This document shows, piece after piece, positions 7,515 through 45,300 of a stretch of DNA of 64,000 bases (within the stretch, counting starts at the first letter, position 1; each line of letters begins with the position of its first letter). The position numbers and the translations under genes are program-made. This stretch comes from Malacoraja senta (Eukaryota), in the NCBI GenBank assembly GCA_038087875.1, contig CM075995.1, positions 1,304,001 through 1,368,000 on the forward strand, read 5' to 3'. The notes under the pieces were generated by a model. That model made no database searches. It was not told where the DNA came from and was given only the letters and a program-made list of their open reading frames with translations.

Positions 7515-10500
7515 TTAACTTGCCATATTTCAGCACAATTCCTTTACCCTTAGATGCTGATGGATTTCTGGAGATGCAAGGAAGTACAAATGCTGGAACT
7601 GTGAGCAAATAGCTGATGAGGAAGAGTGAAATGTAAAACTGGAGGAAGGGATATGGTGAGAGGGGATCCTCTTTCTTTATTTGACGCCCTTTTGGCTCCT
7701 TTGCAGCTCTGGCCTCTTGTCACTTCACCCATCTACCAATCACTGTATCCATCTATGACGTGCCTGTCTTTGCCCCATCTCCCCACTCTTGATCAGATGC
7801 CCCCCCACCCCAGAAGGATGGTCTCGATTCAACATCACCTGTCCATTTCCCTCCACAGGTGCTGCCTGACCTGCTCATTTACTCCAGCACTTTGTATTTT
7901 GCAATACATTTCTGAATATCGCTTTCAATAAACTTGAGTGAATCTCAAAGTCTTGTACCTTTTTATCCTGAGATTGCGACTTAGTTCTGGACTCCTTAGC
8001 CAGGGAACCTTGAAGCCCTAGAGGAATGTTGTTGACACAATGAGATCTCGTCTCATTATTCTAACCTGACATGTGAGTCTAATTTACTCAAATTCCCCTC
8101 ATGACAAAACTACCGCTCCTGGACCCAACATCTCAAATATTTATACTTCCTCTGTCACTTCTTGGGTAAGGAGATAATAATAAATGATAGTTTAGATGTT
8201 GGCTCACCAAGGTCTTGTTCAATTGCTGTATGACTTCCTTACCTCTGTATTCAAATCCTCTTGTCATGGTCACAGAGTGGAAACTGGCCCTTTGGCCCAA
8301 CTTGCCCATGCTGACCAACATGCCCCATCTACTCTAGTCCCGCATTCCTGCGTTTGGCCCATATCCCTCTAAACTTGTCATATCCATATGGCCAATTGTT
8401 TCTTAAACCTTGTGATACTACCAGCCTCAACTACCTCCTTCAGCAGCTTGTTCCATACACCTATGTGTAAAAGAATAAAGTTACCCTTCGGGTTCCTATT
8501 AAATCTATCCCCTCCCTCACCTTAAACAAATGCTCTCTGGTTTTTGATTCCACTGCTTTGGGCAAAAGACAGTATATTTACTTGATGTATCCCTCTCATG
8601 ATTTTGTACTCTTTGAAGATCCACCCTTCATCTTTCTGCGCTCCAAGGAATAAAATCCTAGCCTGCTCAACCTATAGCTCAGGCCCTCGTCCTGGTAACA
8701 TCCTCATAAATCTTATCAGTACCCTTTGTCCTGTTTTCACACCTTACACTTCCTTATCTATGTATATCCGTCTACACAGACATCAGTCTGAAGAAGGGTC
8801 TCGACCCGAAACGTCAACCATTCCTTCTCTCCAGAGATGCCGCCTGTCCCGCTGAGTTACTTCAGCTTTTTGTGTCTATCTCCCAACTTCTATACTCCAT
8901 ATTCTGACTGATGAAAGATTGACCACCCTATCTACCTGTGATGCCATTTTCAAGGAACTATGTACCTGCACTCCAAGGCCCCTTTCCTCTACAACACTCC
9001 CCGTCGCCTTCCATTCACTGTAGGTCCTGCCCATGTTAGATTCCCAAAGTTCAACACTTCACATTTCCCGATTAAATTCCATCAACCATTCCTCAGCCCA
9101 AATCTTGTAATAAAGGCTAACGTGCAATTTACTTTCCAGACACTTGTACCTGCACAAGCACGCAGGATTTTTGATATCAATGTTTCCTCATCCCGTAACT
9201 ATTTAAGAACAGAAAACTTGTCTCTTCTGTTTTGTGCATGACATTACTTTTCACAATATATTGATCAGTGCGGGTGTCGGGGATTATGGGGGAAAAGGCA
9301 GGAGAATGGGGTTAGGAGGGACAGATAGATCAGCCATGATTGAATGGAGTAGACTTGTTGGGCCGAATGGCCTAATTCTACTCCAATCACTTATGACCTT
9401 ATTGCCTAATGTGTTGGGATGGATACGAAAATGGGATAAAACAAGTTGTCGATGGTCGGTGTGAACTTGGTGGGCTGAGGGACCAATTCCCATTTGCTAT
9501 ATCTCTAAACTAAATCACCAGATAATTTGGTGAGTATTGAGATTTAAATAGTTTTTACGATGCATGAAGTAGACTATCCTTATGCCATTGCATTGGATAC
9601 CCTGCTCTGACAGTAAATGGGCTGTCGGTCTATATTTCATTGGTTGCTCTCCTGTGAACGAAGATGCGAGAATATAAACATTTGCTTTTAAACTTAAAAC
9701 AACAGGCTTTTGACAATGTGCGCTGGGATTTGGTTGTTCCACTTACAATTCATGGGGCGGAACAGTTGAGATGCTGCCTTACAGCGCTAGAGATCTGGGT
9801 TGGATCCTGACTACGGGTGTTGTGCGTATGGAGTTTGTATGTTCATCCTGTGATAGATTGGAAAGGTTTGGATGAACATGGGGCAAGCGCATTCAAGTGG
9901 AAATGTGGTCAGCATGGATGAATTGGCAGAAGTTTAGGTTTTCTTCCTTTATAGATCTATGACTCTGTGTGGCTGAAAGAACATCTCAGTGAAAGACGCA
10001 CTTTGATCTGCCTTAAGTTCATTGATCTTCCAAGAGACGTTCATGAGGGAATGCTGCCGACTGCCACAAAAGATGTCGACTATTTTCTAAATGGGGAAAT
10101 AATTCAGAAATCGGAGGTACATAGGGACTTTGGAGGGCTGGTGCAGAATTTCCAAAAATTTAATTTGCAATTCAAATCAGTAGTAAGGAAGGCGAATGCA
10201 AAGCCTGCATTTATTTTGAGAAGGCTAGAATACAAAAACGGATGTAATGCTGAGGCTTTAAGGCAAGAACGATTGGGTTAACATATGATGAGCATTTGAA
10301 GGCACTGGGCCTGTACTCACTGGATTTTAGAAGGATGAGGAGGGACCTCATTGAAGCTTAGCGAACAGTGAAAGGCCTGGATTGAGTGAATATGGAGAGG
10401 ATGTTTCCACTAGTGGGTAAAGTCTAGGACCAGAGGCCATCACCTCAGAATAAAAGGACGTACATTTATAAGGAGATGAGAGTGAATTTCTTTAGTCGGA

Positions 10501-12537
10501 GTTCATAACTTCTCGGAGTAGAATCTGGCCACTCGGCCCATCAAGTCCACTCTGCCATTCAATCATGGCTGATCTATCTTTCGTTCTCAATCCCATTCTC
10601 CTGTCTTTGCTCCATAATCCCTGACACCCGTGCTAATCAAGAATCTGTCAATCTCTGCCTTAAAAATATCCATTAACTCGGCCTCCACAGCCATCTGTGG
10701 CAATGAATTCCAGATTCACCACCCTGACTAGAAATTCCTTCTCATATTCTTTCTAAAGGTATGTGCTTTTATTTGGAGGCTCTGGTCCTTGACCCTCCCA
10801 TTAGTGGGGATAATGAATCTGTGGAATTCATCACCACAAACAGCTGTGAAGGCTGTCAATGGATATTTTTAAGATGGAGATTGACAGATTCTTGATTAGT
10901 ACGGGTGTCAGGGGTTTTGAGGCAAAGGCAGGAAAATGGGGTTGAGAGGGAAACTTAGATGAGCTACGATTGATTGGTGGGCTAGGTATGATGGCCGAAT
11001 TCTGCTCCGAGAACATGGACTTATTCCAGCGTACTGCAGTACGTGCTGAAGGACGCACTGAAGTTCAGTGTAGCCGCTGCAAAGGCTCTATGGGTACGGA
11101 CCACTGTCGATGCTCGTTTCTCTACGGGGAATGGAGGGGCTGGTGTGGAGGTCTCTCCAAAGGTTGAATCACCCACATGAGAGGTGATGGTGCTTTTGCC
11201 CGTAAAGATGTGCTAAAATGGGAACCGAAGGATCTGCAGATGCAGGAATCTTGAGCAAAATAAAGTGATAGACTATCTTTGACATCTCTCCCCCTTTTGA
11301 TCTGTCTCCATTACAGGGGACAGCCAATCGACTGATGTCTACTACAAACCCACTTCCCCACCCCGCCTCTTGCAAAGATGCTGTCCCCCCCACTGTCAAT
11401 TTCTGTCTCCGCTGCATCTATTCCCAAGATGAGGTTTATTATTCCAAGACATCTGAGGTGTCCTCTTTCTTGGGCATGTTTTCTTACCTCTTCCCCCCCG
11501 GGTTATAGATGGATCCTTCAACCGTGTCTCCTCTCCCAGACGGAACAAGGATAGAGTTCCCCAGATCCATACCATTGACCCCAACATCCTCTGCATCCAT
11601 AATATCGGCCACCGATCAGCGTCCATATCTGCCACCTATCTATCGTTTACATATGATTAGCTTATTTTTATCACTATTTCTCTCAGAACCCATGCGTTCC
11701 GGGGAACCCTGGTTGAGAAACACTGCTTGAGACTGAAGAAGGGTCTCGACCCGAAACTTCGCCCATCCCTTCACTCCAGAGATGCTGCCTGTCCCAATAG
11801 ATAATAGGTGCAGGAGTAGGCCATTCGGCCCTACAAGCCAGCACCGCCATTTACTGTGGTCATGGCTGATCATCCCCGCTGAGTTACTTCAGCATTTTGT
11901 GTCAGCCTCCAAACCTGTATGTCTTTGGAGTTTGGGAGGAAACCGGAGCACCCGGATATAAACCCAAACTCTGTACAGACAGAGCATCCGTGGCAGTGCT
12001 GGATTTAGATGAAGAGAGGCCCTAAGCTATTCCAATTGTGAGGCCCCTCCCAATCCCCCACCCCCAAGACTAGAGGAAGATGGAAGAGTGTTTTAAATAA
12101 TTTAAATAATTTGAGTAAAGCCAAGGATGATGACAGGTGTTTTAAAATTTCGCAATTCCTTCTCTGAAGGACATAAAATGTTATTGTTAAATACTGTAGT
12201 GATTGAAAAAAAATGCATAAATGTTAAAATCAACACTGAAAAACTTTTGCTATAAACTAATTTGTAAACATTTTGTGGAATAAGCAGGAATTTTTAGGAA
12301 AATAAAATTGTAAGTTTACTGTTATATTTTAAAAAACAAAACAAAAACAAAAACAACAAAAAACCCAAAACGTGAGCTTAAAAATGTTATTGCCTGGGAA
12401 GTGTTAATAAGATGACCATGACTACCTGATAGTGACAGTGTGACACTCTTAGATCCTACTGTATGTTGTCATTAAACAGTTGGTTTTAAAATACATATTA
12501 AGAAATAAAGAAACTACAATCATCAAATACACTTAGA

Positions 12538-14381
12538 CTAAAAAAGTTGTTTTCTCGCCTTCCTCATTGCAAAATCATCCGGACGTTCATCAAAATTTGT
12601 TTGTCTAAGTTTGTCACTCTCAATGCACAGAATGCTCAGCACAGATAACCTCCCTTGAGACATTGTGGCCCTTAACTCATTTTTAATTATTTCGAGTCTT
12701 GAAAAAGACCTCTCTCCCGAGCAGTTAGTGACCATTAAGCTAAGAAACAGCCGCAAGATTGCTTCCACATTAGGGAAGGCCATCTGAATTTTTTCTTTGT
12801 ATATAATTTGATAAAGGTCTGTATGAGACAGAGAGTGCTCTTCTGTATGCCTATGGCTTTGTCTCACATACGAGTGAAAGTGCAAAAATTCATCAATAAG
12901 TTTCACGTCAACATCTTCTGGGTATGCTTCCATCAACAGTTAAACACCTTGCTGAATTTCTTGCTTAGATGCGGTCAGATTAGCAAGAAAGGAAAACATT
13001 TGTGCAACTTTACTGTACACAGTAGCTCTTCTTCTTAAATTGGTTTCAAGTGCATCTAGTATAGGAAAGGATGATTTTTTGCTGCATATCCTTGTACCTA
13101 CCAGCCATGTTGGCAGCATTGTCATAAGACTGCCCTTGGAATTTTGTAAAGTCAATTTCAAGCTCAGTAGTGAGATAGTTAAACACTAAATCAGCCATGC
13201 TTTCTCCTGAGTGTCAAAGAAAGTTACAAATCTCTCACTTGGTAAACCGTCTTCAGGTGATACATATCTGATAAGGTCATTTTGTGAAATGTCAGGGGTG
13301 GAATCTACTGACAAGCTGAAATATCTAGCCTTTTTCAAATCAGCCAGAATTGCATCCTTAACTTTTTTTGCCATGTGTTGAATCATTTCCTCACATATAT
13401 TTTTTGACAAATAAGAGAAATTCCTGATCTGGAGTTTCCATACCGATTGATATGAGCCAGTAAAAATGGATCAAATTTTGCAACTAGCTCTAATAGACCA
13501 AGATAATTGCTGTTATTTGGAGATCCAAATTGTTCATTGTCTCCTCTGAATGGTAAGCCTCGTTCTGCAAGTGTGCATATTACGGCGACAATTCTCTCCA
13601 TGACATGCCGCCAGTACTGCTGTTCTGCTTTTATTTGTTCCTCTCGCTTTGAAGTTAACGTTTGCCCTCGCTTTCTTGTTAAGTAGGTCAACATGGCATT
13701 CCTGTGCTGCTCTGAGTTTTCATGAGTTTGGATAAGACAGGGGTTTTCCCCAATCATCAAACCCTTCAGAAGCTAAAGATGTAGCAGAAGATGCAATGTT
13801 TGGAAAGAGTTTACAAACAAAGCAATATATCCGGCCTTTTGAGGGAGAATACACAAGCCACTCTCGGCTATGTTTCTCCATTGACTTTTGTTGAATTAAA
13901 AAGAGCCTTTGTGCAAACCTAAACTGCTTTTTATACACCCGCTTGGAATTTGAAAATGGTCCACAACGATGCTGAACTTGAGAGGGGCCCCTTTCTACCC
14001 AATAGGATACGTCCTCATGTGATAATTCTGTCCACAAACCAACGTCTGTTACAGTAGATCTATGTTTGGCATCATCAATCAGTTCTATATTTTCATTTTG
14101 AGCTGGCATCATGGCTGCTTCCTCATATTCAGCTTGCTGTTCCACGTCCTGCTTCGCTGTTTCTGTTTCAGGGAGGTTTTCTTCTGGTTGAATGCTAGTA
14201 GTTGGCTGGATAGCTCCACCACACTGATTTCCTTGTGTTAGTATCAATGTATCTGCTTCATCGCTGGCACTTGTTGCCTCCGTCAATGGCTGATCCAAGA
14301 AAGCAGTGATTGGTCTTCATTTTCATTTTCAAGTCCCTTTCTCTTGCGCTTGCTAGCACCACTTTCAAATCTTTTACTCAT
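12538..14381 (-). pseudogene. hAT transposase pseudogene (ZMYM1-like type: TTF-type zinc finger, DUF4371-like region, hATC dimerisation domain)
   Basis: Frameshifted ORF pieces: MSKRFESGASKRKR from the ATG at 14381; WLVYSPSKGRIYCFVCKLF; LAERGLPFRGDNE...NYLGLLELVAKFDPFL; YFSLSVDSTPDIS; FPNVEAILRLFLSLMVTNCSGERSFSRLEIIKNELRATMSQGRL. The central catalytic region appears deleted near 13170. Confidence 0.88.
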
Positions 14382-15023: not shown

Positions 15024-15878
15024 CAGGGGTGGGGAATCTGCGGCCTTGAGGCCACATGTGGCCTTCTAGGCCATTAAGTGCGGCCTTTTGAATGAATCCA
15101 AATTTTGTAGAACAAATCCTTTTATTTTTTTTAACATGTTTTTGTTCGTCTTTTATTGTTTTTATTTTAATCTTAAAATGGACGTATTTAAAATACCAAA
15201 GAGTAAAAGAAGATTCAACAAAATAATTGTTGAAGAAGGAACTGCAGATGCTGGAAAATCGAAGGTAGACAAAAATGCTGGAGAAACTCAGCGGGTGCAG
15301 CAGCATCTATGGAGCGAAGGAGATAGGCAACGTTTTGGGCCGAAACACTTCTTCAGACTCTTTTCAACAAAATAATCCTCCCCGACTGACGGCCACAAGT
15401 AAAACATTAGTAAGTCATGAGGGCTTTGTTAACAAAATAATGTACATTTTGAAGTACATCTAATTGAAGTTTCTTGGATGCGGCCTTATAGATACATAGA
15501 AAATAGGTGCAGTAGTAGGCCATTCGGCCCTTCGAGCCTGCACCGCCATTCAATATGATCATGGCTGATCATCCAACACAATATCCCGTACCTGCCTTCT
15601 CTCCATACCCCCTGATCCCCTTAGTCACATCTAACTCCCTCTTAAATATAGCCAATTAAAGCTAACTTAATGCGGCCTTCCGACATGAGGCCAGTTCATT
15701 GGCTATATTTAAGAGGGAGTTAGATGTGGCCCTTGTGGCTAAAGGGGTCAGGGGGTATGGAGAGAAGGCAGGTACAGGATACTGAGTTGGATGATCAGCC
15801 GTGATCATATTGAATGACGGTGCCAACTCCTGCACCTATCTATTGTCTATGTTTCTATGAAAAGGTTCCCCACCCCTG
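15024..15878. mobile_element. Charlie-type hAT MITE nested in the larger hAT
   Basis: TIR CAGGGGTGGGGAA / TTCCCCACCCCTG and a perfect 8-bp TSD GTTTAGAG (15016-15023, 15879-15886). Confidence 0.9.
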
Positions 15879-16379: not shown

Positions 16380-16452
16380 CACAGACAGGTCGGAGGTCGG
16401 CGCGTGATGGCGCAGCGCAGTCGGACGACGAGAGAGTGAAACCCCGTCGACG
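16380..16452 (+). other. CDKAL1: Putative non-coding exon 1 of CDKAL1 (start approximate)
   Basis: Consensus donor CG|GTAAGT at 16453, immediately downstream of the promoter motifs and followed by a G-rich intron start. Confidence 0.7.
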
Positions 16453-19400
16453 GTAAGTAAGTAAGTAAGTAAGTAAGTTGGCGGCGGACAGGCCTGGTGG
16501 GGGATAGATGCACTTGGGGCAGCCATCGGGCATGGATGGGACTGCCGGGAGAGTGGGTGCGGAGGCTGGGGACGGGCACGGGCACAGCCGACCGGTGGAA
16601 ATGGGCCCCACCGGGAGAGAGGAGCAGCGGGGGCTGGGGCTGGGGCTGGGGCAAGGAGAGGGGCCGGGAGAGGGGCTGGAGGCAACGGGGCAACGGGGCC
16701 CTGGAGACGCAGCAGGACGGGGACCGTGGAGGGGGGAAACCCTACTATAGTTACCCAAACAGATGCAACTAAATTCAAGGTAACTCTTTCTTCCCAAAAA
16801 ACCCTTCTCTGGCTTAAGTCCTCCCTCCCTCCACCACCTCCAGTTTAAATTCCATTTGGAATATTTTGGAGGACCAAGAAACCAAGAAACCAAGAAAGCG
16901 GCTCTGGGGAGAGGAGGTTGTGAGCGGGCATGGTCAGGGAGAGGGGCTTAGGGGGGGCAGTAGGACCTGGGAGTGGGGGCAACGGGGCTGGGACCACCGT
17001 GGATAGCAAGCAGAGAGGGGCCGTGTGTAGAGGGAGCCATCCCCAGTGGGAGAGGGGCTCTAGCACTGGTCACCACCGGGGAGAGGGGCCGAGGGACCAG
17101 TCACTGGGGCCGGGGGGGGGGGGGGGGGCGCAAGGGGAAATCACTGAGTAGAGGGGCCGGCGGCAGCGAGATCGGGCACAGCCGGGGAGAGGGGCCGAGG
17201 CAATGGGCATGGGAAAGCAGGGGCCGGGTTTTGGGGAGGGAGAGAGACCGACAGGAGCAATGGGCAGGGGCTGGAGCAACGGGCTCCGGGAGAAGTCGGG
17301 GTGAGGCGGGGGACCGAGGAGAGGGGCCAGGACACCATACATGGCTGGGGAAAGGATGATCGGGGGTCCAGGGTACGAGAAGTGGCATTCGGTTAGGACC
17401 GAGACTGATGTTGAGCCAGAGCAACATACATGTCTGGGGCTCGGATGGGAATGGAGTGGGATCGGGCGTTCAGCGAGTTGGATAGACCGACTGGTGCTCT
17501 GCAAAGCCAGGCGCAAGGTCCGGGGTTAATAGCCGCCGCATTGGCTCCCTTGGTTTGTGGGCAAGGAGCTTGTCTATAAATTTGAAGAGGGAAGGGGGGG
17601 AAGTTGCCTCTTACATGCGTGTCGGCGCCACGTTGAGCTTTTAACCTGGTGCTGCCCATCGAGGAAGTGTTGGTTGATGCATGGAGAAGTTTGTGCCGGC
17701 TGCCCTTCTTGCTCCTGAAATCTGTTCATCTTCAGCACACCGCACTATGCAAATTTTGCTCACATTTTCTGCCTGGAAACGTTGTTTTTTCATCTCAGTC
17801 CGGTACTTGGAATTGAAGGAGGAATATTCCATGATTGGAGTCGTAGGGTATGTGCAGTTGTTGGAGCTGATCATCGCAGCCTCAGGATGTCACTGCAGGA
17901 GTTTCTTAGTTAATCAGCGACTTTCCTTTTGTCATAAGCCAACTAGTGGGAATGTATAAGAAGGAATACTGACTGCACAACATTCAATTCAATTCACCTC
18001 TCCTTTGAAATGAATCACTGAATTCCTCTTTGCACCAAGAACTAGGCTGGAATATTAACACACGAGGAATGGCAGATGCCAGAATCTTGCGCGTAAAACA
18101 CAAAGTGCTGGAGTCAGTCAGCAGGCCAATCAGCATCTGTGGATGGAGTGGACAGACGATGATTCAGGTCATGACCCATCTTTGCAACTAGACAACTTTT
18201 ATTTATGGCTGATGAGTTGCAAGTTTTATGAGTAAGTGCCAGAGAAAGTCTTCAGTTGGCTAAGACATTCTATAGACTTCCAGTCCATCGTGGAATCCGG
18301 CTTACCGTGTCACCGACCAGTGATGGCCCTGTACAGTAGCACTATCCAACACACTAGAGGAATCTGGACCATCGTGTTCACAGGGAGAACGCACAGTGCC
18401 CTCCATAATGTTTGGGACAAAGATCCATCATTTATTTATTTGCCTCTGTATTCCACAAATCTATATTGAAGAGGTTGATTTATTAAGTTGTTGAAACATG
18501 CAAGTCATTCCATCATCTTTCTTTGGCAGCAGTGTTAACCGTCCATAGGGTGCGCTTCATTAACTCGTGAAGGCCTTCAATGGGAATCACCCCACCCAAA
18601 ACATGTCTGCTATCTAGAAAGGAAAATACATCTGTTGCCTTGTGGGAAAAGGATGCATTGTCCTGGAGAAACTTAGCAAGTCAGAGAGCATCTGGAATCT
18701 GAAGAAGGATCTCGACCCGAAACATCATCCATTCCTTATCTCCAGAGATGCTGCCTGTCCCGCTGAGTTGCTGCAGCATTTTGTGTCTACATCTGGAGAA
18801 CATAGACCGGTGATGTTTGGTGCCAGGACCCTCCGTCAGACTGATTTTTATCAACCCACATCTCCTGTTATTGCTCCAGTTGCCTAGGAATAGCACTGCC
18901 TCCATGTTACATGTTTGTACGGCACCAATCTTGGAACCTGCCTAAAGGTGCCACGGCAGTAAAAAAAAATTGCTGGAAGGACACAGTGCTGGAGTAGCTC
19001 AGCGGGTCAGGTGGCAGCACTTCTGGAGGACGGGACCCTTCAGATTAAAAATTATGGATATGCTGAGGAGTATAGGCAGCAGCTGTGAAGAAAGAAACAA
19101 TGCTTCAAGATAACTTTTCACTGTGGTATTACTTTGAGCACACATTTTCAACACGTTGGCTTTCATCAGTCAGACTATTGAGTATAAAAGTTGGTAGTTA
19201 TACAAGACATCCCCAGAGTAGGGGAATTGAGAACCACAGGACATAGTTTTCAGGTGAGGGTGGAAAGATTTGGTAGGATCCTGAGAGATAACTTTTTTAC
19301 GCAAAGGGTGGTGGGTGTACGGAATAAGCTGCCGAAGTAGGTTGTTGTGACATGTACTATCGCAACATTTAAGAAACATTTAGACAGGTACATGGATACG

Positions 19401-22974: not shown

Positions 22975-25330
22975 GGCACTGGGGGAGCTGCACGCCGTGG
23001 TCAACAAGTACCAGACGGCTTACCCCGAGGCGTTTGCCACCATTGCCGGTGACTTCAACAAAGCCAACCTGAAGAAATTGCTCCCTAACTTCTACCAACA
23101 TGTCTCCTGCCGCACCAGAGGATCAAACACCCTCGACCATTGCTACACGACCATCAAAGACGTCTATCGCTCTATCCCTCGCCCTCACTTCAGAAAATCC
23201 GACCATTCAACGGTGCTGCTTCTTCCTGAATAAAGGCAGCAACTGAAGAAGTGAGGACTGTACAGAGCTGGTCGGGGGAGGCAGAGGAACAACTCCAGGA
23301 CTGCATGGAGTCTGTAGACTGGGCAATGTTCAAGGACTCGGCAACGGCCCTGAATGAATACGCCACAGTGGTTACAGACTTCCTAAGGAAATGTGTGGAG
23401 GACTGCATTCCAAAAAAACCTTCTGAGTGTTGTCTAATCAGAAGCCTTGGATGAACCATGAGATCCGCACTCTTCTGAAAACCTGATCCTGGGCATTCAG
23501 GTCTGGCGATGCAGAAGTCTATAAGAAGTCCAGATACAACCTTGGTAAGGCCATCAAAAAGGCCAAAAGGGACTTCTGCTCTAAGCTGGAGGATGAGACG
23601 GATGTTCGGCAACTGTGGCAGGGCTTAAATGCCATCACCTCCTACAAGGCAAAATCAGGAGGCAGCTCAAACGACAGCGAAGCATCACTCCCTGACAAGC
23701 TCAATGCGTTCTACGCACGGTTCGATAGGGAGAACACTGATGTGCCTTCCCGAGCTCCCATTTGCCCTGACGGTATTAATGTCACAGTCACAATGTCGAT
23801 GTTAGAAGATCCTTCAGGGGGGTGAACCCTCAGAAAGCACCTGGACCTGATGGTATACCCAGTCAAGTTCTCAAGATCTGTGCAGACCAACTGGCGGGAG
23901 TCTTTGCAGACATTTTCAACCTCTCACTTCTGAGGTCTGAGGTACCCACGTGCTTTATGAGGGCATCAATAATACCAGTGCCGAAGAAGAGTAAGGTGAC
24001 GTGCCTCAATGACTATCGACCAGTGGCACTAACGTCTGTGGTGATGAAGTGCTTTGAGAGGTTGGTTATGGTGCACATCAACTCCAACCTCGACAAGAAC
24101 CTCGACCCACTGCAGTTCGCTTACCGCCACAACTGGTCAATGGAGGATGCAATTTCACTGGCTCTCCACTTCGCATTGGACCACTTGGACAATAAAAACA
24201 CTTACGTCAGGCTGTTGTTTATAGACTACAGTTTGGCGTTTAATACCATCATCCCTTCCAAGCTGGTTACCAAGCTCACGCATCCCTTGCAATTGGATCC
24301 TCGACTTCCTCATCCACAGACCACAGTCTGTTCGAATTGGCGGAAACACTTCATCCTCAGTAACAATTAGTAAGGGAGCACCTCAAGGCTGCGTGCTCAG
24401 CCCCCTGCTTTACTCACTCTATACCCATGACTGCGTAGCCGGACATAGTGTAAACTCCATCATCAAGTTCGCCGACGACACCACTGTTGTTGGACGAATC
24501 ACAGATGGGGATGAGTCAGAGTATAGAAGTGAGATCGACCAACTGACCAAATGGTGCCAGCACAACAACCTGTCTCTCAACATCAGTAAGACCAAGGAAC
24601 TGATTGTGGACTTTGGTAGGGGAAGGATGAGGACCCATAATCCTGTTCACATCAATGGGACGATGGTGGAGGGGGTCAAAAACGTCAAATTCCTGTGCAT
24701 GCATATTTCCGAAGATCTTTCCTGGACCCAGCACACCGATGCAATTATAAAGAAGGCACAACAGCGACTCTACTTCCTGAGAAGATTACGGAGATTCGGC
24801 ATGTCAAAGAGGATTCTCCTAAACTTCTACAGGTGCACGGTAGAGAACATTCTGACTGGTTGTATCGTGGCCTGGTTCGGCAACTTGAACGTCCAGGAGC
24901 GGAAAAGTCTACAAAAAGTTGTGACCACTGCCCAGTCCATCACCGGCTTTGACCTCCTCACTGTTGAAGGGATCTATTGTAGTCACTGCCTCAAAAAGGC
25001 AGCCAAAATCATCAAAGCCCCACACTCATTTCACCATTGCCATCAGGAAGAGGGTACAGGAGCCTGAAAACTGTAACATGCATGTTCAGGAACAGCTTCT
25101 TCCCTACAGCCATCAGGCTATTAAACACAACAACAAATAAGCTCTGAGCTCTGAACTGCAAATGACTATATTATTATTGCACTATATTTGTTATTTATTG
25201 AAAAAAAAAATTCTCTTCCCCCGTTATATACTATGTTTACATATTCACATATTCTGTGGTGCTGCAGCAAGTAAGAATGTCATTGTCCCATCTGGGACAT
25301 ATGACAATAAAACACTCTTGACTCTTGATG
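22975..25330 (+). mobile_element. Rex1/Babar-clade LINE, 5' truncated, with stops and frameshifts
   Basis: APE end (IAGDFNKANL...TLDHCYT...SDH) and RT motifs [51 protein letters not shown]. Tail is a hairpin plus TGACAATAAAACACTCTTGACTCTTGA. Confidence 0.88.
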
Positions 25331-26887
25331 CCCCCAAAAACCAACATGTAGCTATTCGGAGGAACTCGTCCAATTTCATTTTGAATTCTTGGGGCATGTC
25401 AGCTCTTTACACTTTCCAATAAACTGTTCCAGACGTCTGTGATTGTGATAAGATTTTTTTGGGCATTTTTCTTATTCCCTGTTTAACAGTAACGCCCATT
25501 TTCCTTAACTTATTTGAATCAATTAGCCTTTCTACGTAGATCAGATCCAATTCTAACATTTTAAAGACCCCAGTTTCCAAAGTAACTTTTAAGTGATTCT
25601 CTCGTTCCCGATCAAAATATAATTATAATGCATTCGGCTCTTGTAATGCAATCAGTGTTCCCTTATTCATGACTCGTGTTATGGAATAGTGCATTTTAGC
25701 AGAGCAGTACTAGAGAAATTAAAGGGATTAAAAGGAGACAAATTCTGATCACTTGATAGTCTGCATCCCATTGTAAGATATATGTCTACAGAGATACTTG
25801 ATCTATTTAGTCACGTATATGTTCATGTTATCAGAGCAGAATTGGGTCATTTGGCCCATCAAGCCTACGTCTGAAGAAGGGTTTCGTCCCGAAACATTGC
25901 CTATTTCCTTCGCTCCATAGATGCTGCTGCACCTGCTGAGTTTCTCCAGCATTTTTGTGCACCTTCGCCATTCAATTGTGGCTGATCTATCTTTCAATCT
26001 CAATGCCATTTTCATGTCTATTCTCAATAACCACTGACAATGTTCTATCCATGTCCCACGTCCTATCCAAATTCTGTAGAATCTGAAATAAGTGTGTACA
26101 CTGCTCTTTATAAAGAATGGGGCAGAGAAATGGCAAGGAGTAAACTACAGGTAGTTCTACTATAATGCAAGTTTCCATATCACAAATTAGATATAATGCG
26201 AGCAATGAATTTTGGAACATTTTGCATAATGCTGGCCTCATTGATTATAGCAAGGTTTCGATCAGGATTTGCACTTATAAGTTACTTTGGAAATTGACAA
26301 GCAGAAGAAAAATACAGAAAAAGTCTAAATGAAAATAATATTGTTTCTGTGCAACCGCTCACCACAGCAATCAGATACCATTGCCTCTTAAGAACACAGT
26401 CTGTCAGTTTCACCGCAGTGACCATTGAAATTGATAAGCCGAAACGTCATCCATTCCTACTCTCCAGAGATGCTGCCTGTCCCGCTGAGTTACTTTGACA
26501 TTTTGTGTCTGTCTTTGATTTTAACCAGCATCTGTAGTTCCTTTCTGCACAGAAATTGATAAACAATTAGTTCCATTGACACTTGTGCAATGATGCTGTA
26601 TTAAACAGTGCAACATAAGGCCTTTGCTATTTTCAGCTTGCAATAACAAAAATAATTTTAAAGCTATTGGCAAGACCTTTTTGTTTTTGAAAATCCTGCA
26701 GGGGGATAAAAAAAGTCATAAGTTCATGTCATAGGAGCAGAACTAGATCATTAACCCATCGAGTCTACTCCACCATTGTCATGGCTGATCTATCTTTCCC
26801 TCCCCGCCCCAGTCTCCTGCCTTCTTCCCATAACCGTTGACACCTACTGATCAAGAACCTTTCAATCTCCGCTTTAAAAATACCTAA

Positions 26888-29233: not shown

Positions 29234-29346
29234 TGTTATTCCTGGAACACAGAAAATTTGGGTGAAGACTTGGGGTTGTTCACATAATAATTCAGATGGC
29301 GAATACATGGCAGGTCAACTAGCCGCCTACGGGTACAAAATCACAG
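29234..29346 (+). CDS. CDKAL1: CDKAL1 second coding exon (start of the UPF0004/MTTase N-terminal domain)
   Basis: 113-nt exon between tttgcag| and |gtaaat, in frame with the previous exon (AG+T = Ser). Encodes [37 protein letters not shown] with the Fe-S-ligating TWGCxxN motif. Confidence 0.96.
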
Positions 29347-30116
29347 GTAAATATCAAATAAAGTACATTCTATAATACTCATAATTACGGAATTTAATCT
29401 TAGCAATGTAAACATTGGTTTCTGGTGGTATCTTAAGTTTCCTTTGAAACTACTTCAAAATTGGATTACTGACCAGAATCACTACTTGATAGCTTATGTT
29501 AATTGCTATGTTTTGCAAAGTGTTTTGTCACTGTTTGACTGTGTTCTTCCTGACTCTTTTAAAATAGAATTTTTAAGTTACAGAGAAATTCAGCTTTGTA
29601 AAGTTCTTGATCATCAATAAGAATGGTAGTAATGTAAGAATAAGTTGACACAATTTTTACATTATGTATATCGTCTAGTTTTAACAGTGCTGCAAATAAG
29701 TTGTGCCATTTGTTTTTTATCCCAGCCACTTATAGTTTATGGTGTAGAAAGATGTTCCCTTTGATCTAGCATTTTCTACCAGTACACTACATTATTGTCT
29801 ACCTGTATACTACAATATTGTTCCCATACACTACATTATTGTCAACCAGTTTGATCATTATTATCGAAGATAGTCCCAAAAGGTGAGAGGTCAGGAATAG
29901 GTGATGTTTTGGGTTGAGACACTTCTTTAGTCTGAAGGAATGGGTGACGTTTCGGGTTGAGACGCTTCTTTAGTATCCAGCGATGCTGCCTGTCCTGCTG
30001 AGTTACTCCAGCATTTTGTGTCTACCTTCGGTGTAAACTAGCATCTGCAATTCCTTCCTACCAATAATTATTATCACTCAGAATACTACATAATTGTCTG
30101 CTAGTGTATCACATTA

Positions 30117-31705
30117 GAACATAGAACAGTACAGCACAAGAATAGGCCCTTCGGCCCATAATGTCTGTGCCGAACAGGATACCAAGATCATCTCTTATCT
30201 ACCTGAGCATAATACATATCCCTCCCCCCCCCCCCCCCCCATTTCCTGCATATCTTTATGCCTACATGTAAATGTTACTTAAATGTTACTATTGTATCTG
30301 CCTCGACCACCAACTGCAGTGCAATCCAGGCTTTCACCACCCTCTGTGTAAAAAAAAAAGTTGCTCCACATATATCCTTTAAACTTTGTTTCTCTCACAT
30401 TAAAGCTATGGGCTCTAGTATTTTATTTATCCATCTTGGGTAAAAGGTTCTGACTGCCTATCCTATCTGCCTCTCATAACTTTATATACTTCTATCAGGT
30501 CTTCCAGCAATCTCCATCATTCCAGGGAAAATAATCCAAGTCTGTCCAAGCTCTCCCTGCAGCTAATAGCCTCTGATCCAGGCATCATTCTGGTAAACCT
30601 CCTCTGCATCCTTTCCAAAGCCTCCTTCCTGAAATGGGGTGACCATAACTACGCACAATACACCAAATGTGGCCTAACCAAGTCGAAAAGCTGCATCATG
30701 ACTTTCCAACTCTTATACCCTATGCCCCTAAACACACCATATGCATTCTTTACGACTCTATCCATTTGTGTTGTCACTTTCGGGAAGTTGTAGACTTGGG
30801 CTCCAAGATCACTCTGTACATCATTGCTGTTAAAATTCATGCCATTAGTTGTATTTTTTGCCCTCTCGTTTGACCTCCCAAAGTACAACACCTCATACTT
30901 CATTGGATTAAACTCCATCTGCCATTTCTCCATCCATTTCTGTAGCCCGATCTATATCCCGCTGCATACCTTGACAGTCTTCCTCATATTGTTCGATCGT
31001 CCATGTTTACATTCAAGTTATTTATATATATATATATCACAAACAGGTGAGGCCCCAGCACAGATTCCTGTGGAACTCCACAGGTCACATATCTCCAGCC
31101 TGCATATTGTCCTTCCACCACAACCCCGTGTCTTCTATCAGTAAGCCAGTTCTGAATTCATACGACCGAGTCACTATTAATCCCGTGCATTTTATTCTTC
31201 TGGATCGGCCAACCATGGGGGACTTCATCAAATGCCTTGCTAAAACAACATCCATGTAGACAGCTTCCACCGCCCTACCCTCATCGATCACCCTCGTCAC
31301 CTCAAAAAATAAAATCAAGTTAGTAAGACACAATCTTCTGTGTACAAAGCCCATGCTAACTACCCCTAATTAACCCATTCTCTTCCAAATGGAAGTAAAT
31401 CCTATCCCGAAGAATCCTCTCCCAATCCCAATAGCATCCCTATCACTGACATGAGGTTTGCCGGCCTATAATTCCCTCGATTCTCTCTACTTTTCTTAAA
31501 TAAAGGAACAACATTAGCTGCTCTCCAGTCCTCTGGGCCTCGCCTGCGGCTAGAGATGATGCAAAGATCTTCATCTGGCTCCTGCAATCCCCTCTTGGCT
31601 CTTCAATACCTGGCATAAATCCCATCAAGTCCTGGATTGTATCCGCCTTAAAGCTCCATAAGAGCCCCAATATCTCCTCCTCCTCATTCTCAAACTGCCC
31701 TTGTA
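30117..31705 (-). mobile_element. Degenerate CR1 LINE (RT region to 3' tail)
   Basis: Minus-strand fragments EDWRAANVVPLFKK...GNYRP, LCLTNLILFFEVTRVIDEGRAVEAVYMD, EKWQMEFNPMKYEVLYFG and LVRPHL. Confidence 0.85.
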
Positions 31706-32164
31706 TATTAGTATGTGTAGGAAAGAACTGCAGACGCTGGTTTGCACCGAAGATAGACACAAAATGCTGGAGTAACCCAGCAGGACTGAAGAGTCTGAAG
31801 AAGGGTCTCGACCCGAAACGTCACCCATTCCGTCTCTCCAGAGATGCTGCCTATCCCGCTGAGTTACTCCAGCATTTTGTGTCTATCTTATGCATATTAG
31901 TATTTTGCATACTGATCTCCATATCCTTCTTCTTGGGTTATTAGATTGTTTTTGCTGTTGCCTAATCTTTTTGACATAATCTGATTCAGAGATTAACTTA
32001 ATCTCCACCCATACAACAGTTTTCCCCCCCAAAATAATTGCGTTTGAATTGTCACAATAAATACATGGTCAAGATTGGAGACCATGGACTGAATGTACTT
32101 AGAGCAGAATGGATACAAAATTGGCTAAGTAGCAAATGAGGAGTTAAGGTGGGGGGTTGCTATG

Positions 32165-33098: not shown

Positions 33099-35507
33099 GA
33101 AGGATGTCATTATGCTGGAAAGAATGCAGAGCTTTACGAGGATGTTGCCATGATTTAAGAGGCTGAGCTATAGGAAGAGGTTGGGCAGGCTACGACTATT
33201 TCTTGGAGTGCAGGAGGATGAGGAATGATTGTACAGAGATGTACAAAATCATGAGAAAAATAGATCGTGTGAATGCACAGTCTTTATCCTAGGGCTGGGG
33301 AATCAGGAAAGCCCATAGTTTAATGTGAGATGGGAAGATTAAATACGACCCTGAAGGGCAAATTTGTCACCTAGAGGGTAGTGGCTATATGGAACAAGCT
33401 GCCAGAGGAGGTAATTGAGGCAGGTACTATAATAGCATTTAAAAGACTCTGGTTCAGGTACATGGATAGGAAAGATTTAGAGGGATATTGGGCCAAATGC
33501 GGGTGGATGTTGGGCCAGGACCGGGCCCGGCTGCTGACTGATCGAGGAGAAGAGAGACATCGGTGAGCGAGCTGGGCTGTCGGCAAGAGTGGAAGGCTGT
33601 CGGAGAGACTTCGCCCACTTGAGTGCCGGCGGTCGGCTGAGGATGGACCCGTGTGAGGCCCGGCGGTCGGTGGTGGACCCGCTGTCGAGAACAAGGAGGA
33701 ACCCAGGGGGGGGGGGCGCCGAGAACAAAGAGGGACCCGGCGTGGAAGGTTGGGGAGATGAAAGCGGGACTATATTGAATATTCTTGTAACTTTGTTGGC
33801 ACCCTTTAGGTGGCGACTCTTACATACTAGTGCTGAAGGCAAACAAAGAATCTCACTATACCTACACGTGACAATAGAGTATCATTCAATCAAATGGGAC
33901 TATCATAGATGGGGCATCTTGATTGACCTACAAATTGGGCTGAAGGCCTCTTCATGCTGTACGACTAAGTGACAGCAAAATTAGAAAACTTTCCACAAGT
34001 ACATGCCCTGCACAGCACTCTTCTCCTTTGTGTGTCATTCCATTGGCATTATCCGTTTACTGAGGCAACAAATGAACGTTTTACTCCCTTCTGTTACAAT
34101 TAGAAGAACATCCTGGTTTAATCGTATTAGTTATAATCACCGCCAAGCAACCATCAGAAAAGGTTGCAAAAGCAATTACTACTCTCAAAAGGGTACGATG
34201 TGAAGCAAACCACCTTATAAACAAAAAATTAAACTGAATAGGTAGTCACAATGAAACTATGTGAATGGCATACTCAAAATCTTGGACGCATGACAGCCAA
34301 CGCCAGCCAGGAGAGTTCTATATTTAACATTTTATAACCAACCCACATGCTTCAACTTTTCAATTTAATCATTTCATTACCAGAGCTTGACCCACAAATG
34401 GCTCCCAGATTCCTTCATCTTTTTTTCTTGCATTTTCAGCTGAATCTTTTCATTCCCAGTCAATGAAGCAGAGTAGGTTTCAGAGTAGGTGGTCAGAGCA
34501 AGACCACTCCCCACCCCATCCCACCACCACCACCACCAACAGCTGATAAAATTTATAACTGGGTTTATTTTCAAGCTGCCAGTCTGATAACAAACAGATG
34601 CTGGGTCAGTCCAACGTAAGCACTTAAAGACACAAGGAGCCCGTTGTCAATGAGAACATGCAAAGGCAAGTTAGAAACGGCACTGTAATGCCATTTCGCC
34701 ATACACTGGTCTCACATTCACCATTCAAGTACATTGTAGGTTAAAATAATCCTGTAATCAAATGCTGCAACAGGATAGCTCACAATGTTGTCACATATCC
34801 CTGACGATGAAGTCAATCCTTGGCTGCATTTTAAAACTGAGATTCCTTTTTGTAACAAATTAACTTTCTCTGTATTCAGGTTAACAAACCAAAATCTACC
34901 TAGTTGATCTTGGCCAAGAATGAATATCTTTAGAATAACTTAAGTGCTCACAAAGCCGACACAGTTGCTTGGTTCTAAATTATGAACATATCTCTCTTCA
35001 TTTTCACTTTTATCATGTTTTTATTCAAAGCTCAGGCTTTGAAAATCCGTCCTATTCCTCTTAAAAAGAATGCCCCAAAATGCCATCAAAGCAATGCATT
35101 TTTTAACCTTTTGCTTTTCATTTACCATTACCATTGGGGTAGTACAGTGGTGCAGCGGTAGAGTTGATGTCTGTACAGAGTTGTAAGTTCTCCCTTGAGT
35201 TCCTCTGGGTGCTCCAGTTTCCTCCCATACTCTAAAGATGTGCATGTTTGTAGGTTAATTGGCTTCTGTAAATTGTTAAGTGTCCATAGTATGTAGGTCA
35301 GCATGGACTTGGTGGGCCGAAGGGCCTGCTTCGATTCTGTATCTCCAAAGTAAAGTAAATTTAACCTACCAATTTTTGTTCCAATCCATGCGAACCAGAC
35401 AAATTTGCAAATTTTGTTGCTTTTTTCCCTTAGTTTGAATTTTCTTTTTTCACATTAACTCTATAAGAGCGATTTAAAAACATTTTTATCTCCAATATAA
35501 TGTTTAA

Positions 35508-37690
35508 GAAGGAACTGCAGATGCTGGAAAATCGAAGGTAGACAAAAATGCTGGAGAAACTCAGCAGGTGAGGCAGCATCTATGGAGCGAAGGAAATAGG
35601 CGACGTTTCGGGTCGAGACCCTTCAGACTAATGTGGGGGTGGGAAGAAGAAAGGAAGAGGTGGAGACAGTGGGCTGTGGGAGAGCTGGGAAGGGGAGGGG
35701 AAAGAAGGAGAAAGCAGGACTACCTAAAATTGGAGATGTCAATGTTCATACCGCTGGGGTGTAAACTACCCAAGCAAAATATGAGGTGCTGCTCCTCCAA
35801 TTTACGGTGAGTCTCACTCTGGCCATTGAGGAGCCCCAGGACAGAAAGGTCGGATTCGGAATGGGAAGGGGAGTTGAAGTGCTGAGCCACCGGGAGATCA
35901 GGTTGGTTATTGCAAACCGAGCAGAGGTGTTGGGCGAAGCAATCGGCAAGCCTACGCTTGGTCTTACCAATGTTGAGCAGCTGACACCTAGAGCAGCGGA
36001 TGCAATAGATAAGGTTGGAGGAGGCGCAGGTGCACCTATAAAGACTGCTTGGGTCCTTGGATGGAGTCAAGGGGGGAGGTAAAGCGATAAGTGTAGCATT
36101 TCCTGCGGTTGCACGGGAAAGTGCCAGGAGAGGGGGTGGTTTGGATGGGAAGTGATAAATTGACCAGGGAGTTACGGTGGGAGCGGTCTCTGCGGGAAGC
36201 AGAAAGGGGAGGAGGTGGGAAGATGTGGCCAGTGGTGGGATCCCGTTGGAGGTGGCGAAAATGTCGGAGGATTATTTGTTGTATGTGACGGCTGGTAGGG
36301 TGGAAGGTGAGGACAAGGGGGACTCTGCCCTTGTCACGAGTGGGGGATGGGGAGTGAAAGCAGAGTTACGGGTATAGAAGAGACCCTGGTGAGAGCCTCA
36401 TCTATAGTAGAAGAGGGGAACCCCGTTCCCGAAAGAATGAGGACATCTCCGATGCCCTGGTGTGGAACACCTCATCCTGGATGTAGATGCGGCGTAGACG
36501 GAGGAATTGGGAATAGGGGATGGAGTCCTTACAGGAAGCAGGGTGGGAAGAAGTGTAGTCCAGATAGCCATGGGATTCAGTGGGTTTATAGTAGATGTCG
36601 GTCAGTAGTCTGTCACCTGCGATGGAGATAGTGAGGTCTAGAAACCGTAGGGAGATGTCGGAAATGGTCCAGGTGTATTTGAGTGCCGGATGCAAGTTTG
36701 TGGTGAAATGGATGAAGTCAGTGAGTTCTGTATGGGTGCAGAAGGTAGCACCAATGCAGTCGTCGATGTAGCGGGGATAGGACCATGGTACGCCTCGAAC
36801 AAGGATTGTTCGACGTACCCTACAAATAGGCAGGCATAGCGAAAAGAGGGAGTCAAACGAAAAGTTGTTAAGGGTAAGGACCAGCTCTGCTAGGCGGAGG
36901 AGAGTATCAGTAGACGGGGATTGGTTGGTTCTGCGGTCGAGGAAGAAACGGAGGGCTTTAAGACCCTCCTGGTGGGGGATGGAGATGTAGAGTGACTGGA
37001 CATCCATGGTGAAGATGAAGGAATGGGTCCTAGAAAACGGAAGTTATGGAGGAGACGAAGAGCGTGTGAGGTGTCTTGAACATAGGTAGGGAGGGATTTA
37101 ACCAGGGGGGATAGGATGGAGTCGAGGTATGTGGAAATATGTTCGGTGGGGCACAAACAGGCAGAAACAATGGGTCTGCCAGGAGAGTCAGGTTTCTGGA
37201 TTTTGGGGAGAAGGCTGGGGAACGATGAGGTTGGAGGCTTGGGAGGGCAAGGAGCCGGAAGTGATGAAGTCAGTGATAGTGTTAAAGCCCTGTCCCACGG
37301 TACGAGTTCATTCCAAGAGCTCTCCCGCGTTTGCCCTGATTCGAACTTGGAGATTTACGGTAATGGCCACTCGTCGGTACTCGGGGCTCTCGTGGACATT
37401 TTCAACATGTTGAAAAATCTTCACGAGTCTTCCCGTACTTACCTGCCATTAGCGGGTCTTCCCGAGTACCTGTCGTTAGCGTTACGAGCCGATAAGAGAC
37501 GTCCCTGAGCTCCAACGTACCCGCTACGTTCATTCTCCGTGCTTACCCCGAGTTTAAAAATAAAAAAACTCGGGAGAGCTCTTGGAATGAACTCGTACCG
37601 TGGGACAGGGCTATTAGAGATAGTGGCCTGGTGCTCGTCTGTGGGGTCATGGTCCAAGGATAAGTAGGAGGAGGTGTCTGAGAGTCCAAT
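35508..37690 (-). mobile_element. Penelope-like element (RT + GIY-YIG endonuclease), disrupted
   Basis: RT motifs MDVQSLYISIPHQEGLKAL and RYIDD, plus LLTDIYYKPTESHGYLDYTSSHP. GIY-YIG region CASSNLIYCIRCSRCQLLNIGKTKRRLADCFAQHL. The terminal repeat at 35508-35630 matches the dispersed mini-elements. Confidence 0.92.
37285..37613. mobile_element. Harbinger/PIF-like MITE inserted into the Penelope element
   Basis: 42-bp perfect inverted repeat (37286-37327 / 37571-37612) and TTA TSD (37282-37284, 37614-37616). Confidence 0.88.
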
Positions 37691-40335: not shown

Positions 40336-40814
40336 ATAGCCTTAATGGGACGCACTAGTTCCTTAATACTAATGCTTGATATATCTCTAAGCTTAAATAA
40401 ACTAAACTAAAGTAGAGCCTGATAACAGAGAGGCAGCTTGTCAGGTACATATTGCTAGGCTGTTCTTACTTACCATTCTCATCTAGCCATGTCTGCAGCT
40501 GATTTTTCCCCCTATGATAAGCAGATGGCAATCTCTGACTGTGCGTTACCTGTCAGATTGAGCATCAGGGGTACCATGCTTCTCATCACACCCGTGATTC
40601 AAGTTAGCAGAACTAATCACCCCCACCTCACATGGAGTAGCAAGCTGAATAAATAACCTGTGTGGGAAGGAACTGCAGATGCTGCTTTAAACCGGAGGTA
40701 GACACAAAATGCTGGAGTAACTCAGCGGGACGGGCAGCGTCTCTGGAGAGAAGGGATGGGTGACGATTCGGGTCGAGACCCTTCTTCAGACTGAGAGTCA
40801 GGGGAGAGGGAAAC

Positions 40815-42940: not shown

Positions 42941-43435
42941 AGAGTGTTCAGTGAAACGATTGCCCAGTCTACGTTTGGCCTCACCGATGTACAAGAGTCC
43001 ACATCTTGAACAACAGACACAGTAGCTAACAAGTCACCTGTCCATTTCCTTCCACAGATGCTGCCTGACCCGCCGAGTACTTCCTGCACTTTGTACGTTG
43101 CTCAGGATTCCGGCATCTGCAGTCTCTTGTGCCTTCGTGATATTGATGGTGCTGTTTACAAGTGGTTTCGTTTCTTGCCTTGATAACGATGCAATAAACA
43201 AAATTCATTATTATTGGCTTCGAAAACATGTCCCAAATTTATAGGGTCACTAGACTAAGAGGGACCCGTTGGGTCCCATGTTCACATGGGAGGGCTGGTC
43301 CCCCAACGCAATATTCCATCTCTCCACCAGTTCCAATATTGGTGGCCAGTGGGGGCCTTTCTGGAGTATGGGTGTTGTGGGCCGAAGGGACTGATTTCCA
43401 GAGGGCTAGTATGAACATTGTGGGCCGAATGGATT

Positions 43436-43971: not shown

Positions 43972-45300
43972 TCAGGCAGGCCAAACAACTTATTTCATTT
44001 CATTTCCATTTCAATTTCAAGCACAGGGCAGACCGAACAGCTCATTGCATTTTCATTTCATTTCCATTGCCATTGCAGTTTCTAGCACAGGGCAGACCGA
44101 ACAGCTCATTGCATTTTCATTTCACTTACATTGCAATTGCAGTTTCATGCACAGGGCAGGCCGAACTGCTGATTGCATTTTCATTTCACTTCCATTGCCA
44201 TTGCAGTTCAAGCACAGGGCAGGCCAAACAGCTGATTGCATTTTCATTTCACTTCCATTGCCATTGCAGTTTCAAGCACAGGGCAGGCCGAAGCTCATTG
44301 CATTTTCATTTCCTTTCCATTGCCATTGCAGTTTCAAGCACAGGGCAGGCCAAGCCAAACAGCTCATTGCATTTTCATTTAATTTCCATTGCCATTGCAG
44401 TTTCGAGCACAGGGCAGGCCAAGTCAAACAGCTCATTGCATTTTCGTTTCATTTCCATTGCCATTGCAGTTTCGAGCACAGGGCAGGCCAAGTCAAACAA
44501 CTGACTGCATTTTCATTCCACTTCCATTGCCATTGCATTTTCAAGCACATGGCAGGCCGAACAGCTGATTGCATGTTCATTTCACTTCCATTGCCATTGC
44601 AGATTCAAGCACAGGGCAGGCCAAACAGCTGATTGCATTTTTATTTCAATTCCATTGCCATTGCAGTTTCAAGCACAGGGCAGGCCAAACAGCTGATTGC
44701 ATGTTCATTTCATTGCCATTGCAGTTTCAAGCACAGGGCAGGCCAAACAGCTGATTGCATTTTCATTTCATTTCCATTGCCATTGCAGTTTCCAGCACAG
44801 GGCAGGCCAAGCCAAACAGCTCATTGCAATTTCATTTCATTTCCATTGCCATTGCAATTTCAAGCACAGGGCAGGTCAAGCCAAACAGCTCATTGCATTT
44901 CCATTTCATTTCCATTGCCTTTGCAGTTTCTAACACAGGGCAGGCCAAGCTAAACAGCTCATTGCATTTTCATTTCATTTCCATTGCCATTGCACTTTCA
45001 AGCACAGGTAGGCCAAGCCAAACAGCTCATTGATTTACATTTCATTTCCATTGCCATTGCAGTTTCAAGCACACAGCAGGCCAAGCCAAACAGCTCATTG
45101 CATTTTCATTTCATTTCCATTGCCATTGCAGTTTCAAGCACAGGGCAGGCCAAGCCAAACAGCTCATTGCATTTCCATTTCTTTTCCATTGCCATTACAG
45201 TTTCAAGCACAGGGCAGGCCAAACAGCTGATTGCATTTTCATTTCATTTCCATTGCAGTTTCAAGCACAGGGCAGGCCAAACAACTCATTTCATTTTCAT
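43972..45300. repeat. Minisatellite, ~60-69-bp unit, about 20 copies, inside the Helitron
   Basis: Unit GCACAGGGCAGGCC(AAGCC)AAACAGCTCATTGCATTTTCATTTCATTTCCATTGCCATTGCAGTTTCAA. Confidence 0.95.

Follow-up and report, generated by a model that had tools for sequence, protein, structure and literature searches.

The window analysed here, a 64,000-nucleotide stretch of Malacoraja senta DNA (contig CM075995.1, positions 1,304,001 to 1,368,000), holds exons of a host gene together with many repeat copies. A MiaB-like methylthiotransferase exon at 29235-29347 (+) sets the host strand as plus, and the gene is one that we take to be CDKAL1; a putative first exon lies in a CpG island at 16380-16453 (+) and is followed by a GTAAGT donor. 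CDKAL1-like exons lie out of order and on both strands at 1.33, 1.94, 2.02, and 2.57 Mb of G000:C19—likely through mis-oriented contigs, or else through rearrangement. Other features of the window include broken LINE RT frames plus a transposase-like fragment, presumably of hAT type, at 23780-25067 (+) and 13720-14316 (-); a tandem array with a unit of ~810 bp (40813-42951) in which a Penelope endonuclease end is joined to a LINE RT fragment; a minisatellite of 20 units with a period of 69 (43992-45301); and a 3.05-kb direct duplication with 97% identity (45731-51801), which is either a tandem duplication or a pair of unmerged haplotypes.

The feature of interest is a 28-mer that resembles a hammerhead ribozyme core. 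A sequence-only reading of this DNA had reported intact copies at 8788-8815 (+) and 31795-31822 (+), and both are exact. Within three mismatches there are 15 matches in the window, on both strands, against none in 100 shuffles. The variants that had been listed with one to three changes all exist, on both strands, but four descriptions needed correction: the copy near 2377 carries a 1-nt insertion, that at 35602 has a 3-nt deletion within CUGAAGA, that at 25871 belongs to the GGGUUUCG subfamily and has more than three changes, and the one at 62897, which has no CUGAAGA, forms the inverted arm of the 62914 copy. A profile of the pLTR repeat that carries the motif, built from 27 of 30 exact loci plus four young copies (three loci with rearranged 3' parts were omitted), has 44 matches in the window.

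The core at 8788-8815 reads as a minimal type I hammerhead, with CUGAAGA, a bulged A, a 4-bp helix II closed by a CUCG loop, GAAA, a CG/U palindrome, and a predicted cut after GUC. It sits in a 5'-truncated 3' end of a Penelope-like element (PLE) at 8716-8885 (+), made up of ~72 nt of pyrimidine-rich 3' UTR, the ribozyme, and a short 3' end, with homology starting at 8716; in another copy this upstream type lies 207 nt behind the endonuclease end. The second exact core belongs to a mini-insertion in a CDKAL1 intron (31715-31893, +), where an inverted arm (31715-31788) is followed by a copy that starts from A(-3), the whole being flanked by a 10-bp direct repeat (31705-31714 and 31894-31903). 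A further window copy, at 35501-37281 (-), is a 5'-truncated and frameshifted RT/GIY-YIG copy that ends in a pLTR with tail, its hammerhead (35602-35626) bearing the 3-nt core deletion.

The remaining copies are short. Two are head-to-head pairs, one at 2313-2488 (2409 minus and 2412 plus, both cores mutated) and one at 62833-63005 (62910 plus, 62914 minus). On the plus strand lie a mini at 11728-11795, whose core reads GAAACUUC with a broken palindrome, and two minis in CDKAL1 sense orientation: 18696-18790, with helix II and palindrome mutated, and 25868-25959, a mutated member of the young subfamily. On the minus strand are a young-subfamily mini at 15265-15361 that has a 14-bp target duplication and, ahead of AGT, extra bases of which the last is G; a copy at 40698-40794 with A15.1 changed to U; four copies (47416, 48733, 50435, and 51752, within 47319-51752) that represent two insertions doubled by the 3.05-kb duplication; a copy at 53315-53415 with ~70 nt of upstream UTR and a helix II mismatch; a mini at 56782-56877 that begins at A(-3) with G before it and likewise has a helix II mismatch; and a mini at 61183-61267 in which C3 and the palindrome are mutated.

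The very high copy number claimed for the motif is borne out: across the 1.94-Gb genome the exact 28-mer occurs 18,728 times (9,309 forward, 9,419 reverse), and the reversed-pattern control occurs 0 times. Profile matches number 395 in 864 kb (five genes plus the window); evenly spaced stretches totalling 399 kb hold 155, or 3.9 +/- 0.5 per 10 kb, which extrapolates to a genome total of ~750,000 pLTR fragments when both arms of inverted insertions are counted. A minimal-hammerhead descriptor has 26 matches in the 864 kb and none in each of five shuffles; a scan for Rfam hammerheads, suggested by the sequence-only reading, returned zero hammerhead matches even at E<=5. A search for divergent hammerhead families that required a pyrimidine at N7 gave 1,651 matches, and the first 100 resembled variants of this family. 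At G000:C1:322079904-322097238, four identical variant cores lie on one strand at a spacing of ~5.77 kb—a tandem array of this kind could put several hammerheads on one transcript.

The proposed Penelope origin stands, with the pLTR repeat joined to an ORF that carries RT, a CxxxxCxxC linker, and GIY-YIG; as had been stated, the same repeat terminates the RT/GIY-YIG fragment at 35501-37281. This fragment is 80% identical to a near-intact copy, and a search with its RT leads to copies with open frames of up to ~1,190 aa. Pfam matches to PF00078 (RT, E=7e-6) and PF01541 (GIY-YIG, E=0.0014) are both under cut-off, and the linker CNRKRCNTC precedes the EN. A CX2-5CxxC linker marks Neptune and Nematis elements (PMC8557442); judged by linker and domain layout, the element would be an EN+ PLE of Neptune type, the linker itself being common to Neptune and Nematis. 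The hammerhead lies ~119 nt past the stop in long copies, and in tandem copies it lies additionally 291 nt ahead of the ORF-start motif, so that hammerhead-bearing pLTRs flank the RT-EN ORF in a tandem pLTR-ORF-pLTR layout with a unit of ~3.9 kb; near-intact tandem copies exist. The ATG is ~165 nt downstream of C3. In two copies (L148 and L164), the pLTR-ORF junction holds a 41-codon upstream ORF that begins past the cut site, within the pLTR, and runs across the main ATG in a different frame.

Partial tandems, inverted 5' copies, and an optional tail are all present in this family. The 3' ends cluster at about +91-96 and +124-132 from C3; in PMC11167929, the optional tail is tied to two internal RT start sites. 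Several subfamilies have a common core and differing 3' UTRs, and an endonuclease end lies upstream in 78 of 317 copies checked, the UTR type of the 8788 copy included. Two long copies are 98.9% identical, and to judge by such sequence identity the family is recently active. Two other long copies, L043 (4952-10000) and L044 (5825-9900), have inverted 5' arms of at least 1.6-2.1 kb at 98.6-99.7% identity and appear to be very recent insertions. The pyrimidine tract and CAG upstream of every long copy (e.g., window 35627-35700, -) resemble a splice acceptor; UTR-bearing sense copies could be exonised.

The dispersed minis had been read as a separate, non-autonomous family, but the data can do without one: longer copies of every upstream type have an endonuclease C-terminus at a distance of 68-220 nt upstream, and by their sequence the minis are short insertions of pLTR ends, perhaps with some self-copying. 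A self-propagating family, SINE- or retrozyme-like, in which an internal promoter and RT start sites let minis beget minis, is a reading that we consider improbable. Discrete 95- and 135-nt units do dominate, 24 same-strand pairs lie within 400 nt of each other among 335 core-bearing matches, head-to-tail joints back to the -3..0 boundary occur in sequencing-run contigs of three other organisms, and pLTR-related tandem retrozymes have been reported, one chondrichthyan among them (bioRxiv 10.64898/2026.07.22.740005). On the other hand, each of the upstream and downstream types examined can be tied to endonuclease-bearing copies, a subfamily made up of minis alone was not apparent, and the window has no hammerhead-bearing tandem array beyond one 1.9-unit repeat. 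None of the 26 strictly intact cores in 1.26 Mb has a same-strand intact neighbour within 500 nt, whereas retrozymes consist of tandem units that each carry an intact hammerhead; rare arrays may lie elsewhere in the genome.

Turning to the motif itself, its sequence makes it a minimal type I hammerhead belonging to the pLTR of a Neptune-type PLE. The core has CUGANGAH, helix II, and GAAA with G10.1-C11.1, while the 15.2/16.2 palindrome has no loop 3 and the NUH triplet is present (ACGU, with C or U as the next base). Given the loop variants among copies, a helix II of 4 bp (GGGU/ACCC), closed by a tetraloop of CUCG or UUCG, seems to us a better description than one of 5 bp with a 2-nt loop. 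Helix I had been called weak, and it is: generally 2 bp, with U-A in 96 and U-G in 28 copies at one pair, G-C in 120 of 151 at the other, and A-C at the third position, but only 1 bp at 8788, because C1.2 there reads A and the second pair is lost. The earlier description of a minimal core in which an ACGU palindrome replaces helix III agrees with the published minimal consensus (PMC4209133). Helix II changes are one-sided (U-A to U-G in 13 of 151, with no two-sided compensatory change), the subfamilies being close. Three subfamily majorities retain the core and differ in loop II, two U-A/U-G pairs, and N17; the exception is a four-member cluster with CpG-type changes.

Folding predictions disfavour the hammerhead, with a helix II probability of at most 0.04 and a helix I probability of 0, and a self-dimer paired through helix II is predicted to exceed the hammerhead dimer scaffold in stability by 8-16 kcal/mol. 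In three copies folded (window 8790-8835 and L148 among them), the purine-rich 5' core is predicted to pair with a pyrimidine stretch past the cut site, a possible off state. Intact cores make up 27 of 212 core-spanning copies (~13%), and two CpGs in the core are altered in ~28% of copies. Genome-wide, single-change variants number 593 at the invariant A6, 622 at the free bulge, and 1,056 at N7; only N7 is higher, so free and invariant positions are not cleanly separated. Both the intact fraction and these counts fit largely neutral decay after insertion.

Greater conservation of core than of flanks had been proposed as a sign of function. Among internal cores, 2.1% of core positions are changed against 4.5% of flanking positions (16/769 vs 171/3,836, P=0.002; 78 of 96 sequences, in clusters of at least four); the difference is there, but subfamily variation and base composition could explain it. 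A larger difference among all spanning copies (4.3% vs 13.5%) was set aside, since both the exact-core seed and the alignment ends bias it. From the sequences, the hammerhead probably works in source elements and probably does not in dispersed copies. That most copies are inactive, as had been suspected, is likely; for family identity and inactivity of the copies taken jointly, our confidence is high.

The sequence-only reading had gone further and suggested that sense copies are latent self-cleavage sites in host pre-mRNAs, with CDKAL1 as the example. In favour of this idea are the exact core at 31795, sense within a CDKAL1 intron, and the ~13% of core-spanning copies that are intact. The copy at 8788, however, is ~7.6 kb upstream of the putative first exon and is therefore outside the gene, and the 31795 copy is predicted to pair with its own inverted arm, locked in a -70 kcal/mol hairpin; no dimer partner is nearby, helix I is only 1-2 bp, and published monomers did not cleave (PMC4209133). 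Introns also lack a loss of sense copies: across five genes (an alpha-catenin-like gene, three glypicans, and CDKAL1, with assembly gaps in four of the regions), 185 copies are sense and 198 antisense (P=0.54). The confidence interval on the sense share, 43-53%, allows a small effect, and the intact cores, 15 sense and 11 antisense, give low power at a total of 26. Taken together, we find latent cleavage of host transcripts very improbable; a vertebrate genome tolerates ~390 such fragments per Mb, and strand selection is not visible in the sampled introns.

A further observation concerns where short copies begin. Starts were analysed in 3'-anchored matches, 358 of 395 genic and 135 of 155 evenly spaced, of which 473 of 493 were re-located; counts include both arms of inverted insertions and duplicated segments. 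Among copies that reach +4, 204 of 288 start within -10..+4 from C3, and the stop rate per nucleotide is 7.2% in this interval against 0.9% downstream and 0.6% upstream. The pile-up recurs in separate samples (genic 153/358, evenly spaced 58/135) and persists in non-inverted copies only (108/180). In 69 of 73 non-inverted copies, the flanks are unlike the pyrimidine-rich element UTR, so the pile-up is not a gap in the reference set. Direct repeats of at least 8 nt occur in 38 of 274 cases against 3.6 expected, a tenfold enrichment of target duplications. There is no start excess at the cut site, where 5 of 473 copies begin (0.43% per nt), nor do long copies show a cut-site excess (2 of 42 start at +24..+30).

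The start boundary coincides with TCAGT, an initiator (Inr) consensus. The CAG was also considered as a splice acceptor; however, the minis have no common upstream exon and target duplications abut the start, so splicing is not the cause of the pile-up. Internal Inr/DPE promoters have been reported for Penelope (PMC2377424), and an Inr-like motif is reported in PMC3846280. In several rows of Fig. S3 in PMC4209133 (Nematostella 2, Nasonia, Ixodes 2, and Trimeresurus), UCAG stands a few bases ahead of helix I, which would fit a shared Inr or acceptor.

Ordinary 5' truncation of cDNA primed at the 3' pLTR could give a similar boundary with no RNA 5' end involved, if the TCAGTCTGA near-palindrome folded back and the upstream pyrimidine tract stalled synthesis. 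Inverted segments at the junction are common (199 of 473 copies), the stop rate is higher in inverted than in non-inverted copies (10.4% vs 5.6% per nt), perfect palindromes centred on the TCAGTCTGA 9-mer are common, and the start peak is broad, spread over ~6 nt; moreover, both 5' truncation and inverted arms are characteristic of PLEs (PMC8557442, PMC3846280). Against a truncation hot spot stand the non-inverted copies that stop at the same place, an excess of G before A(-3), and the long copies described below, most of which pass the same sequence. In 12 of 19 unique-flank copies, the base before A(-3) is G (P=0.0009), against 3/22 and 3/14 at other starts, as cap copying would give. The signal is mixed: a base tally by hand of the first 100 of 1,657 genome matches with non-T at -5 and non-C at -4 gives G 40, A 42, and T 18, G is found in 5 of 16 unique-flank loci of such matches, and target-duplication cases with a single extra base number only three (G, C, G). 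We regard a truncation hot spot as unlikely, though it is the most serious of the rivals.

Long copies were sampled from 70 of 155 loci that have a 21-mer from the 5' part of the ORF (the first 71 listed, less one already included). Of 37 that reach the ribozyme edge of the 5' pLTR, only three stop there (2/16, then 1/21 in a second batch), and among those that extend at least 900 nt into the ORF the figure is 1/30. The share of 3/37 differs from 204/288 overall (P=1e-13) and from 11/20 in the same young subfamily (P=2e-4). Since 34 of 37 long copies pass the same sequence, what decides the stop is less the sequence than the template. This pattern suggests that short copies come from the uncut, capped 5' end of an RNA, and long ones from circular or end-joined templates. 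Our preferred reading, which we hold to be probable, is that the motifs are fossil pLTR insertions of a Neptune-type PLE whose hammerhead likely cuts only as a protein-assisted dimer, most copies deriving from the front end of uncut capped RNA.

The steps might run as follows. Transcription would start at the Inr-like TCAGT just ahead of the core, leaving 2-3 nt for helix I, and the element's RT would begin synthesis at an internal position, ~94 or 131 nt further downstream, in the way demonstrated for the anole element. If the template were a linear capped RNA, RT would run off at the 5' end and give a 95- or 135-nt mini with a whole, uncut ribozyme and often a fold-back arm. Where the template extended further upstream—in a circle closed after cleavage at both hammerheads, an RNA with its ends held together, or a tandem read-through RNA—RT would give long or tandem copies. 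Lone inserted copies, without a partner, would then decay, chiefly at the two core CpGs. The scheme draws on the observed family, tandem pLTR-ORF-pLTR layout, two 3' ends, target duplications, start pile-up, decay, and absence of intronic strand bias; we give the steps up to the long copies, taken jointly, a little better than an even chance.

The nature of the long-copy template admits several answers. A circle, ends held by a hammerhead dimer, or a tandem read-through RNA would each explain the passage through the start site, and selection of processive complexes would explain it in part: passage in long copies may reflect pre-selection for such complexes, or descent from tandem masters. A circle after double cleavage is the model of PMC4209133, while PMC11167929 reports internal RT starts, protein-assisted cleavage, and use of uncut RNA. 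A stronger version, which we put forward tentatively and would not yet bet on, is that the several hundred thousand minis are strong-stop-like cDNAs from the internal primer site to the cap, and that full-length and tandem copies arise from circles ligated after a double cut. If true, the ribozyme would be a switch from capped messenger to circular transposition template, and the insertions would be in vivo evidence for a hammerhead function so far only proposed.

The link between ribozymes and PLEs is already published, and the family described here is a further member with an ordinary motif. What is new is that short copies usually start right ahead of the motif and long copies run through the same spot. 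Neither this family nor cap-terminated PLE minis turned up in a literature search; Repbase, Dfam, and some supplements (supplementary file 1 of PMC4209133 and those of the preprint), which lay outside its scope, may hold the family. The start-site pattern is a useful and testable lead on PLE copying, and the family gives exact predictions: an RNA start at -5..-1, a cut at +28, RT starts near +94 and +131, and a unit of ~3.9 kb.

The family can be compared with known systems. With the minimal type I hammerheads of Cervera and De la Pena (2014, PMC4209133) it has in common CUGANGAH, G10.1-C11.1, GAAAN, a palindrome, NUH, and the absence of loop 3, and with the PLEs in that study a hammerhead in both pLTRs, mostly single dispersed motifs, and a pyrimidine-rich 5' flank. 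Helix I is 2 bp here, like the D. virilis, Culex, and Oikopleura rows, and helix II is 4 bp; no chondrichthyan is among the rows covered of Table S1 and Fig. S3. The 18,728 exact copies of one variant compare with ~4,000 motifs in coelacanth and ~9,000 in Xenopus (PMC4209133). Common to Neptune/Nematis-type EN+ PLEs (Craig et al. 2021, PMC8557442) are the single ORF with RT, CX2-5CxxC linker, and C-terminal GIY-YIG, as well as partial tandems, inverted 5' copies, and an optional 30-40-bp tail. Non-LTR retrozymes (PMC7229834; bioRxiv 10.64898/2026.07.22.740005) are likewise short, non-coding, and pLTR-related with a type I hammerhead, but they form tandem arrays with at least two intact ribozymes, whereas copies here are single or head-to-head. 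In the Anolis Poseidon element PAc (Frangieh et al. 2024, PMC11167929), the ORF begins inside the ribozyme rather than downstream of it as here, and short copies that end at the RNA 5' end are not described in the parts of that paper covered. In common with PAc, there are two 3' ends ~38 nt apart that match two internal RT starts, no trace of cut ends, and uncut RNA as the likely template.
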